755 bases of DNA, taken from assembly GCF_003334385.1 (NCBI RefSeq), contig NZ_QOWN01000146.1; one strand, given 5' to 3'. The position numbers were made by a program, and so were the translations under genes. The stretch comes from Escherichia coli. Its GTDB lineage: Bacteria > Pseudomonadota > Gammaproteobacteria > Enterobacterales > Enterobacteriaceae. The stretch's first letter is position 1, and every line of letters begins with the position of its first letter. Below, one piece after another: positions 1 through 755 of the stretch. The notes beneath the pieces are model-generated. The model was given only the letters and a program-made list of their open reading frames with translations, was not told the DNA's origin and ran no database searches.

Positions 1-167
1 CACCGGGGTTTACCGCGTTAACGGAGCGCGGCGTTGTCCCCTCATGGTCGCTGGTCCGGTGCGATGGTGGAAGAAACCGGACGATGTGTTACCTCGCAAG
101 CTCTGTTATGTCATGTGTCTGATTTGTGATTTAAGTCGGATAATTGTCGTTGCCATTAAACAGAGGA

Positions 168-198
168 TTGATGACCGACAGGGTGGCATTGTTAGAAT
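168..198 (+). promoter_or_regulatory. Candidate sigma70 promoter for the lipoprotein gene: extended -10 TGtTAGAAT (190-198) with a weak -35 TTGATG (168-173)
   Basis: TG at 190-191, one nt, then TAGAAT at 193-198 (5/6 to TATAAT) fits the extended -10 pattern TGnTATAAT. TTGATG at 168-173 matches TTGACA at 4/6 but the spacer is 19 bp, which is suboptimal. The predicted transcription start near 205 would leave a roughly 20-26 nt leader before ATG 225/231. Pattern-based only; other weak -10-like hexamers exist (GATAAT 138-143). Confidence 0.3.
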
Positions 199-210
199 AA
201 GACTTATTCT
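194..210. promoter_or_regulatory. Perfect 17-bp palindrome AGAATAAG-A-CTTATTCT overlapping the candidate -10 and transcription start; possible operator for a dimeric regulator
   Basis: Arms 194-201 (AGAATAAG) and 203-210 (CTTATTCT) are exact reverse complements around a single central A at 202. The element overlaps TAGAAT (193-198) and the predicted start site, the usual position for a repressor operator. The matching regulator is unknown. Confidence 0.3.
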
Positions 211-230
211 TATCTGTGCCGGGAATGAAA

Positions 231-284
231 ATGAAAAGAAATCTTCCGTTAATTATTTTGTTGTCTTCTCTGGTTATGGGCTGT
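231..284 (+). other. Predicted lipoprotein signal peptide and lipobox (signal peptidase II type), ending at the lipidated Cys codon
   Basis: Translated N-terminus M-K-R-N then LPLIILLSSLV then M-G-C. Position -3 is V and -1 is G, matching the lipobox consensus; -2 is M, which is atypical but tolerated. Cys codon TGT is at 282-284. If the start is 225 the peptide gains two residues (MKMKRN...). Confidence 0.6.
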
Positions 285-557
285 ACGCAACATAAAACAG
301 ATATGCCCCGACAGTTGGTTAAGGCATTACCACAATATCCGGCCTATGCAGCGGCAAATTATATAAAGGGACGGGTTGATGTGAAGTTTGATATTGGTGC
401 TGATGGTACTGTCACCCGAATTGAGTTTATCCGTTCAGAGCCGCACCATTTGTTTGATGAGCAGGTTGTAAAGGCGATGGCAAAATGGCGATTTGAGAAG
501 GACAGGCCGTGTAAAGGCGTGAAGAAAACGTTTATCTTTAGTCCTTCTGCACCCTGA
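231..557 (+). CDS. Small lipoprotein with a TonB C-terminal-like domain (stand-alone TonB_C paralogue)
   Basis: Frame is open 216..557 with TGA stop at 555-557. Candidate starts are GTG 216, ATG 225 and ATG 231; ATG 231 is preferred because the GGGA/GGA at 221-224 sits about 6 nt upstream, while 225 and 216 lack a usable Shine-Dalgarno. The N-terminus MKRNLPLIILLSSLVMGC has a basic n-region, a hydrophobic core and a lipobox-like VMGC with Cys at 282-284; Thr at +2 means no Asp inner-membrane retention signal. Residues from PQYPAYAAANYIKGRVDVKFDIGADGTVTRIEFIRSEPHHLFDEQVVKAMAKWRFEKDRPCKGVKKTFIF (about 330..554) align gaplessly by eye to the E. coli TonB C-terminal domain as I recall it, sharing PQYPA, G-V-VKFD, DG-V, AM--WR-E and P--G. 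GC is about 43%. Confidence 0.8.
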   Translation: MKRNLPLIILLSSLVMGCTQHKTDMPRQLVKALPQYPAYAAANYIKGRVDVKFDIGADGTVTRIEFIRSEPHHLFDEQVVKAMAKWRFEKDRPCKGVKKTFIFSPSAP

Positions 558-710
558 TTATTTCATCAGAAATTAATTATCACTCTGTTGTTATTCTGTA
601 CATCCCGGCAGGGTAAGTCTTGTTCCGTCGGATATGAAGATGAAATATTGTTGGAGGACAGTGGGTACCTGCTCCTGTAACCGAACGTTCATTTCTCGTT
701 ATTTTTCATG

Positions 711-745
711 CTGGCCGGGCGCAGATGCGTTGCATCTGTTGCCAG
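711..745. repeat. Compound inverted repeat forming a stem-loop: outer stem CTGGC/GCCAG, inner stem CAGATGC/GCATCTG, 3-nt loop
   Basis: The inner perfect 7-bp stem pairs 722-728 with 732-738 around loop GTT (729-731); a G-U pair at 721/739 could extend it. The outer 5-bp stem pairs 711-715 with 741-745, separated by an asymmetric internal loop (716-721 against 739-740). No U-tract follows on either strand, so it is not a canonical intrinsic terminator. Confidence 0.4.
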
Positions 746-755
746 CCTTCTCCTG

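Follow-up and report, generated by a model that had tools for sequence, protein, structure and literature searches.

When pieces of the Escherichia coli energy transducer TonB (residues 33-239, 103-239 or 122-239) are sent to the periplasm behind a signal peptide, these engineered fragments inhibit the TonB system (bioRxiv 10.1101/2020.01.05.895219). Phages also encode small lipoproteins of outer-membrane type, i.e. Llp in T5 and Cor in phi80, N15, HK022 and mEp167, which act on the TonB-dependent transporter FhuA by binding or inactivating it from the periplasmic side (bioRxiv 10.64898/2026.03.26.714494). The fold of the TonB C-terminal domain (CTD), TonB_C, is further reused as a protein- or strand-binding module in FusB of Pectobacterium, in AgmX and GltG of Myxococcus and in the LIC_10042 family. 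FusB, AgmX and GltG are inner-membrane-anchored, energised proteins. Here, we analysed a stretch of 755 nucleotides (nt) of E. coli DNA (contig NZ_QOWN01000146.1 of assembly GCF_003334385.1, hereafter the window), in which the gene at 231-557 encodes a TonB CTD behind a lipoprotein signal peptide. We describe this protein, its prophage setting, its relatives and its upstream region, and we weigh the possibility that it acts as an un-energised decoy in TonB-dependent import.

Compared with the CTD of E. coli and Salmonella TonB (residues ~153-239; 1U07, 1XX3, 2GSK_B, 2GRX_C and 8RD6), the window protein has the same fold, a gapless alignment, the YP motif and five aromatic positions. Unlike TonB, it carries a lipoprotein anchor in place of the transmembrane helix, the proline-rich rod and the ExbB/ExbD link; it has Leu for Q160 and Tyr for R166, ends in SPSAP and is devoid of the C-terminal strand beta4. 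The engineered fragments are likewise un-energised periplasmic TonB heads, but they are artificial, soluble, longer and overexpressed, whereas the window protein is natural, comprises a head of only ~80 residues and is predicted to be tethered to the outer membrane. With Llp and Cor it has in common that it is a small, phage-encoded lipoprotein of outer-membrane type; Llp and Cor differ from it in that their fold is unrelated, they are specific for FhuA and they usually exclude phages using the carrier's own receptor. FusB, AgmX and GltG gave weak sequence matches (E 2e-6 to 0.2). By analogy, the window protein would be functionally most like an engineered periplasmic TonB fragment, and its lifestyle appears closest to that of Cor and Llp.

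The only substantial open reading frame (ORF) of the window is located on the plus strand at 216/231..557 and specifies 108 amino acids (aa) from ATG 231; its RefSeq entry is WP_000828068.1, named 'TonB family protein'. The layout of the protein is MKRNLPLIILLSSLVMGC-TQHKTDM-PRQLVKALPQYPAY...FIFSPSAP. The start ATG 231 is conserved with the allele of phage 21, with a GGGAA/AGGAA Shine-Dalgarno sequence 6-10 nt 5' of it. The features of the gene and protein are as follows.

231..557, plus strand: coding sequence of the 108-aa lipoprotein with a TonB C-terminal domain, stop TGA at 555-557.
221..225, plus strand: Shine-Dalgarno-like GGGAA with a 5 nt spacer to ATG 231, aligning with AGGAA, annotated as the ribosome-binding site in phage 21.
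231..284, plus strand: lipoprotein signal peptide MKRNLPLIILLSSLVMG and predicted lipidated Cys18 (codon 282-284), lipobox V-M-G-C, by a PS51257-type pattern and the invariant Cys.
285..305, plus strand: tether, residues 19-25 (TQHKTDM), from the lipid anchor to the first TonB-aligned residue (P26 = TonB P153), by alignments.
306..542, plus strand: TonB_C fold, residues 26-104 = TonB 153-231, by profile, alignment and AlphaFold2 (AF2)/Foldseek.

The window protein is a member of the TonB_C family by profile, fold and motifs. Its Pfam matches are confined to TonB_C (PF03544; E 1.5e-14, residues 34-91) and TonB_2, and it reached 54.6 bits against the NCBIfam model TIGR01352 (tonB_Cterm), whose cutoff is 27.1. 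When all Protein Data Bank (PDB) sequences were searched with phmmer, the top matches were the CTDs of Salmonella TonB (8RD6, E 3.9e-16) and E. coli TonB (1U07, E 5.9e-16), and the gapless alignment placed query residues 24/26-104 on TonB 151-231 (chain 9ddo_F), query residue n being TonB n+127. The AF2 model of the mature protein showed a predicted local distance difference test score (pLDDT) >90 over mature residues ~8-88 and a topology E-H-E-E-H-E. All top structural matches of this model in Foldseek were TonB CTDs, 1U07, 2GSK_B, 2GRX_C and 8RD6 aligning with a root-mean-square deviation of 0.9-1.0 Å and 38-41% identity (for 1U07, 0.9 Å and a target TM-score of 0.88-0.92). The YP motif is kept (Y36 P37 = TonB Y163 P164), and aromatic residues F53, F75, W86, F88 and F103 stand at TonB F180, F202, W213, Y215 and F230. 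At the SPSAP C-terminus, the last three residues of TonB (EIQ, 237-239) have no aligned counterpart.

The protein is not a TonB energy transducer. It remained below threshold in the models built for true TonB (NCBIfam PRK10819 equivalogs), with 49-74 bits for cutoffs of 265-448, and it has neither the transmembrane helix nor the spacer. An in-frame TAA is present at 198-200, ten codons 5' of ATG 231, and three more stops lie farther upstream; therefore no transmembrane helix or proline-rich extension is possible in that frame. Anchor-to-domain linkers in the family mostly have 7-15 residues, and that of the window protein has 7.

The signal of the 108-aa protein consists of the n-region MKR, a hydrophobic core and the lipobox V-M-G-C, which follows the pattern [LVI][ASTVIM][GAS]C, with Cys18, followed by Thr at +2 and Gln at +3, in agreement with the PROSITE PS51257-type rule. 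A lipobox was present in 17 of the 17 family members examined, 16 of which follow the strict PS51257-type pattern, and its Cys is invariant across 12 aligned members (alignment A2). At +2, all relatives have Ser, Thr or Ala; a residue other than Asp at this position is the outer-membrane sorting rule of Enterobacteriaceae. From the lipoprotein-type signal and the non-Asp +2 residue, the window protein is predicted to be located at the outer membrane.

Most of this architecture had been proposed in a sequence-only reading of the window, which described a stand-alone TonB CTD behind a lipoprotein signal with a non-Asp +2 residue, ~40% identical to the E. coli TonB CTD without gaps and lacking an N-terminal transmembrane helix and a proline-rich spacer. 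That description is borne out: the lipobox is VMGC, the Pfam, PDB and AF2 matches are to the TonB CTD (PF03544 at E 1.5e-14, model 0.9 Å from 1U07), the identity seen in the phmmer alignment and in Foldseek (38-41%) is far beyond chance, the stops close the frame upstream and 7 residues separate Cys18 from the domain, and the Cys followed by Thr is the one invariant in the 12 aligned relatives. The same reading took the segment PQYP for the TonB region around Q160, and here it has to be corrected. PQYP corresponds to TonB P161-Q162-Y163-P164, and the equivalent of Q160 is Leu33, in a column that varies within the family.

The window is 100% identical to many E. coli chromosomes. In strain DETEC-S792, the gene sits in a lambdoid prophage with Stx-phage architecture, in the order Q antiterminator, methylase, tRNAs, a cargo gene at the stx position, nanS-p, holin, lysozyme, Rz and the TonB-like gene; 3' of it come a YlcI/YnfO gene, HNH, terminase, head and tail genes, J and lom. 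This slot, i.e. between the spanin genes/lysis cassette and HNH/terminase, is kept down to 33% identity in unrelated phages. The gene has a guanine-cytosine (GC) content of 43.4%; that of the prophage is 53%, and the late genes on either side have 54-58%. Given its inter-module slot and deviant GC, the TonB-like gene is a prophage cargo (moron) gene. The sequence-only reading had suggested looking for a transporter, ExbBD or colicin/phage genes in the neighbourhood: prophage genes were indeed seen, and no transporter, ExbBD or colicin gene was linked to the TonB-like gene in the contexts examined (the prophage and the loci of the relatives).

The gene was found in 1616 of 5426 complete E. coli genomes (~30%), with up to 4 copies per genome. 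Among these carriers, 414 have the window allele and ~1200 an allele ~74% identical, and at least 80% of the gene length is covered in all but four (1612/1616). In the phage collection, the window allele was present in Stx1a-converting phages, Lys8385Vzw and JLK-2012, and a 72% allele in the classical phage 21, ev017, Perceval and others, together with a 40% relative in a Klebsiella phage. The gene directly follows bor/iss in phage 21 and in an ST131 prophage. Between the window allele and the phage 21 allele, the ratio of nonsynonymous to synonymous substitutions (dN/dS) is 0.12 at dS ~1.4; selection therefore preserves this protein, which is not a tonB fragment in decay. Relative to the core, evolution is 2-2.5 times faster in the two segments closest to the TonB-box contact (26-40 and 91-108).

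The J tip of the carrier phage is lambda/434/21-like (53%, 52% and 67.5% identity). The phage therefore probably uses a porin-type receptor, and a TonB block would not obviously hinder its own spread. Self-exclusion via a TonB-dependent receptor was rejected as the main role on account of this J tip. Other envelope cargo was observed around the gene, namely an OmpC-like porin 3' of Q, and also iss/bor, in the ST131 prophage (L126 627-1709 and 4227-4520), and lom and a gene resembling a YadA C-terminal adhesin in the window's prophage (L124 3913-4512 and 7377-8690).

Among thousands of ordinary TonB_C proteins, an exhaustive HMMER search retrieved several short ones (107-133 aa) with 33-49% identity to the window protein. 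All these short relatives combine a lipobox, a short linker and TonB_C, except for two (P0138 and the frame-disrupted P0054). P0035 (45%), P0098 (33%) and the Klebsiella phage copy occupy the same slot, after the spanin and before HNH/terminase, despite different lysis and head genes. P0074 (35% identity; L095 5001-5390) is carried by a contig of a ParM/StbB-type plasmid, 1.5 kb from a Qat defence locus made of a QatA-like KAP NTPase and QatB (L095 6866-9646), and P0040 and P0046 are chromosomal. A species-level genome scan, carried out with one peptide pattern and giving a species list that is a lower bound, added lipoprotein members in Raoultella (two species), Enterobacter sp. JUb54, Serratia grimesii, Erwinia typographi and two Pantoea species. 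In S. grimesii, the gene is flanked by ycgN and dsbB/nhaB; in Raoultella and Enterobacter, it occupies a common housekeeping locus, and no transporter or exbBD gene was found near the Serratia, Raoultella and Enterobacter copies. A scan of viral contigs with the family alignment returned only E. coli copies 98-100% identical. Names in the sources are generic ('TonB family protein', 'Protein TonB'), and some GenBank records read 'TonB fragment' or 'Partial tonB-like membrane protein'. In PHROGs v4, the protein matches phrog_1267 over its full length (E 7.7e-43), a family labelled 'Rz-like spanin' in the category lysis; this label is probably a positional mis-annotation, one that will propagate into phage annotations.

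In order to characterise the upstream regions, the 150 nt that precede the gene in each lineage were scanned for the Fur consensus, and 2000 dinucleotide shuffles served as control. About 12-13 of 17 lineages have strong matches, mostly starting 29-36 nt before the start codon; in relatives (about 12/17 lineages) they reached 12-14/14 of TGATAATnATTATCA or 14-17/19. A perfect TGATAATTATTATCA precedes the phage copy L003 and the Enterobacter JUb54 copy. The match is 13/14 in P0037/Raoultella, P0038 and P0147, 12/14 in Pantoea formicae, 17/19 in S. grimesii (64 nt upstream) and 16/19 in Erwinia; two chromosomal metagenomic copies have 15/19 and 14/19 (63 nt upstream), and the plasmid copy 13/19. 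In 309 kb of sequence, 8 sites of such strength lie before family genes and 4 elsewhere. Judged from the motif alone, we infer that the family was ancestrally iron-repressed through Fur. In the window, the corresponding region holds two candidate elements.

194..210, no strand assigned: perfect 8-1-8 palindrome AGAATAAG-A-CTTATTCT, overlapping the Fur-consensus match at 196-214 and the -10-like element below.
190..198, plus strand: extended -10-like element TGtTAGAAT, with a weak -35 ATGACC at 171-176, by consensus match only.

The window site at 196-214 (minus strand GATAAGAATAAGTCTTATT) matches the Fur consensus at 13/19 (p = 0.05 in the shuffle control). Since the palindrome and the strong Fur boxes of the relatives are equally far from the start codon, the 194-210/196-214 region is probably a degenerate Fur operator. 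A 13-nt deletion has removed the right half of this palindrome from the phage 21-type allele, and Fur control seems to be weakened or lost in the lambdoid alleles of E. coli. The window and the phage 21-type allele share the conserved block ATTGTyAGAATAAGAC despite the dS of ~1.4 of the gene, and TGnTAG[T/A]AT also precedes the Fur box in distant relatives. No strong Fur site was found elsewhere in the 40-kb prophage, nor before its TolA-like gene (described below). As no terminator-like site was found at the window gene, late-operon read-through would add to expression from the predicted -10 promoter.

The four strong Fur matches outside the promoters of the family (L002 7042, L126 6042, L003 1476 and L006 9606) all lie just 5' of the gene for the small terminase subunit, near cos; that of phage 21 (L002 7042) is 19 nt before the annotated cosQ. 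They have TAAGTGAnAA..ATTATC in common, and may reflect binding by Fur, binding by IHF or terminase, or chance.

At its stx position, the prophage of the window carries a cargo gene annotated 'tolA' (L001 13244-13672, plus strand), which encodes a 142-aa protein built along similar lines. A ~35-residue linker joins its lipoprotein signal (LTTGC) to a domain aligning without gaps to E. coli TolA 333-420, i.e. domain III (1S62, E 1.5e-25; Pfam TolA PF06519, E 8e-23). Its GC is 41% and its position 3' of Q. This TolA twin occurs in 895 of 5426 E. coli genomes, sometimes in tandem (e.g. L125 5101-5907, where one of two tandem copies is a pseudogene), and in phage mEp460_ev081; its family is PHROG 5772, whose function is listed there as unknown. 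It resembles the TonB-like gene in joining a lipobox to the head domain of a transducer and in being a low-GC moron widespread in E. coli prophages, and differs from it by the TolA PF06519 domain, the stx slot, the longer linker and the lack of a Fur-like box. By sequence, one prophage thus appears to encode lipoprotein-anchored heads of both envelope energy transducers, TonB and TolA.

The role that we favour, at a probability of roughly 40%, is by analogy that of a decoy or competitor in TonB-dependent import. The 7-residue tether would present a folded TonB head uncoupled from ExbB/ExbD, and this domain would bind TonB-box strands by beta-strand addition to its third strand, as the TonB head does. 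Its targets could be the TonB boxes of TonB-dependent transporters or of incoming colicins, or alternatively its partner could be TonB's own head. Being unable to transmit force, the domain would act as an un-energised competitor and lower TonB-dependent import, and the lysogen would tolerate phages that depend on TonB (T1/phi80 type), group B colicins and siderophore-microcins, but would lose some iron uptake. When iron is limiting, the Fur box of most relatives may bring up the competitor and its targets at the same time; the lambdoid alleles of E. coli, whose operator is decayed, would be expressed from the conserved extended -10 promoter and by late read-through. Tol-dependent import may be affected in a similar way by the lipoprotein-TolA domain III that this prophage also encodes.

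A decoy or brake on TonB-dependent uptake, phage and colicin entry included, had already been suggested by the sequence-only reading, and it gains indirect support from the moron slot next to bor/iss, the TolA twin, the inhibitory engineered TonB fragments, and Cor and Llp. The decoy role is favoured because any role but that of a competitor is difficult to envisage for the TolA twin, because the family occurs on phages, on a plasmid and beside a defence locus, and because Fur co-regulation would deliver the decoy when receptors are abundant. The action of Cor and Llp on FhuA means that phages do sacrifice the function of a TonB-dependent transporter to exclude rivals. In AF2 models of the mature protein joined through (G4S)5 to the BtuB TonB box (23-row alignment), the peptide was unstructured (pLDDT 41-47), and in the positive control, TonB 148-239, it was also undocked (pLDDT 45-56).

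Several observations weigh against a decoy. TonB Q160 and R166 are replaced by L33 and Y39, and the segment equivalent to TonB 155-162 is variable in the family and nearly invariant in three enterobacterial TonB rows (alignment A1). The 7-residue tether may be too short for the docking pose of TonB under the barrel. No diversifying or positive selection was detected between the two E. coli alleles, with pN/pS (the ratio of nonsynonymous to synonymous polymorphism) <0.4 everywhere, and a search of PADLOC-DB 2.0 returned 0 families at E <= 0.01. The chromosomal Fur-boxed copies of Serratia, Raoultella, Enterobacter, Erwinia and Pantoea are easier to reconcile with a positive function in iron uptake than with a brake, since a brake on iron uptake induced by iron starvation looks costly for species with stable chromosomal copies. 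Finally, in the searchable full-text literature, in which most subscription journals are missing, no paper on the window protein or its TolA-like twin was found, nor any account of a naturally occurring TonB head with a lipoprotein anchor only, of how it is distributed among prophages or of the Fur boxes upstream of it.

These chromosomal copies lead to the converse proposal, a positive accessory factor of iron uptake, in which a Fur-induced scaffold at the outer membrane, under the transporters, would improve TonB-dependent import in iron limitation. This scaffold could hold the TonB head (as a heterodimer), a protein substrate in the manner of FusB, or a binding protein of the periplasm, e.g. 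FhuD, and phages and plasmids would carry it as a host fitness gene. Interaction of TonB with FhuD and dimers of the TonB CTD have been reported. Such a factor is supported by the strong Fur boxes that 12-13 of 17 lineages have ~30 nt upstream, also at stable chromosomal copies surrounded by housekeeping genes, as well as by purifying selection and by the structural match to the FusB CTD, which directly binds its ferredoxin substrate (9HI3). We nevertheless regard it as unlikely, for no transporter, ExbBD or binding-protein gene is linked in any context examined, the most abundant members, i.e. the E. coli prophage alleles, no longer have a convincing Fur box, and an un-energised TonB head in the periplasm is experimentally inhibitory. 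Receptor-specific exclusion of the Cor/Llp type, where the protein would dock on the periplasmic face of one receptor, alter its external loops allosterically and block phage adsorption, agrees with the size class, lipoprotein anchoring and phage origin of Cor and Llp, and the faster evolution of segments 26-40 and 91-108 could reflect shifting specificity. It is distinctly unlikely all the same: the fold is TonB_C and not that of Llp or Cor, pN/pS is low throughout, and the lambda/434/21-like J tips of the carriers make self-exclusion via a TonB-dependent transporter improbable.

A role in the envelope or in virulence that is unrelated to TonB-dependent transport would involve contact with peptidoglycan, Lpp or OmpA, or resistance to serum or host in the manner of Bor/Iss and Lom. 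Contacts of the TonB CTD with Lpp, OmpA and peptidoglycan have been reported, the gene adjoins bor/iss in phage 21 and the ST131 prophage, and the prophages also carry Lom, a porin and a YadA-like adhesin; yet the Fur boxes of the relatives point to iron physiology and the sequence has no sign of surface exposure, so that we hold such a role to be very unlikely. The PHROG 1267 label implies a lysis accessory or spanin, a view to which the full-length phrog_1267 match (E 7.7e-43), the lipoprotein nature typical of an o-spanin and the position directly 3' of the lysis cassette on the same strand lend some colour. It is hardly credible for a globular TonB_C protein, which is neither a short proline-rich o-spanin nor equipped with the C-terminal transmembrane segment of a u-spanin, and chromosomal and plasmid copies lie away from any lysis genes. 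The carrier phages, moreover, already have a complete Rz/Rz1 pair, an annotation supported by the literature in phage 21, and the spanin label was rejected on these grounds. As for a functionless remnant of a captured tonB gene, suggested by the GenBank names 'TonB fragment' and 'Partial tonB-like membrane protein', it is effectively refuted by the selection and conservation data: a dN/dS of 0.12 over dS ~1.4, a lipoprotein signal that was acquired and then kept in all lineages, a length of at least 80% in 1612/1616 E. coli carriers, and a family spanning 33-100% identity with a conserved genomic slot.

The decoy role can be extended to a wider proposition, in which Enterobacterales phages and plasmids would carry outer-membrane-tethered mimics of the TonB and TolA heads, the TonB mimic being ancestrally Fur-wired. 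Such mimics would be un-energised decoys at the inner face of the outer membrane that catch TonB boxes or TolA-binding epitopes and so block competing phages, colicins and microcins. Taken as a whole, this proposition is somewhat doubtful.

The remainder of the window was also surveyed, and the Rfam scan gave no match. A single neighbouring gene enters it.

689..755, minus strand: 3' part of a YlcI/YnfO family gene, neighbour only, by RefSeq annotation (L001 20689-20889).

An imperfect inverted repeat, GGCCGGGCGCAGATGC / GCATCTGTTGCCAGCC, at 713-747 (16 nt arms, 75% complementary, 3 nt loop) falls inside this 3' part. On the 5' side of the TonB-like gene, a block at window ~56-92 (GTGCGATGGTGGAAGAAAC...) is conserved with phage 21, where a hypothetical ORF of 45 aa is annotated (L002 5846-5983). 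The frame of that ORF continues in the window as an 83-aa ORF (44-295, plus strand), a putative coding region only, which overlaps the start of the TonB-like gene.

The gene described here is real, selected and very common, and its architecture is a new variant within a domain family already known. Among the leads that have emerged, the Fur-box pattern and the TolA twin are the most useful. Database labels such as 'TonB', 'TonB fragment' and 'Rz-like spanin', found on thousands of records, are corrected by this analysis, and the Fur control suggested by the upstream motif offers a clear condition for testing the gene. Iron, vitamin B12, many phages, group B colicins, siderophore-microcins and Trojan-horse antibiotics (e.g. 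cefiderocol-type conjugates) all enter through TonB-dependent transporters. If the protein is inhibitory, it would be a transferable modifier of susceptibility to TonB-dependent agents and would embody a new exclusion principle; if it is helpful, it would be an unrecognised component of the TonB system. Either way, it would provide a natural reagent for the long-standing question of how the TonB head finds and engages TonB boxes. Should the wider proposition of TonB and TolA mimics prove true, 'transducer mimicry' would define a new class of exclusion or tolerance mechanism, found in about one in three E. coli genomes, Stx1a phages and ST131 prophages among them.

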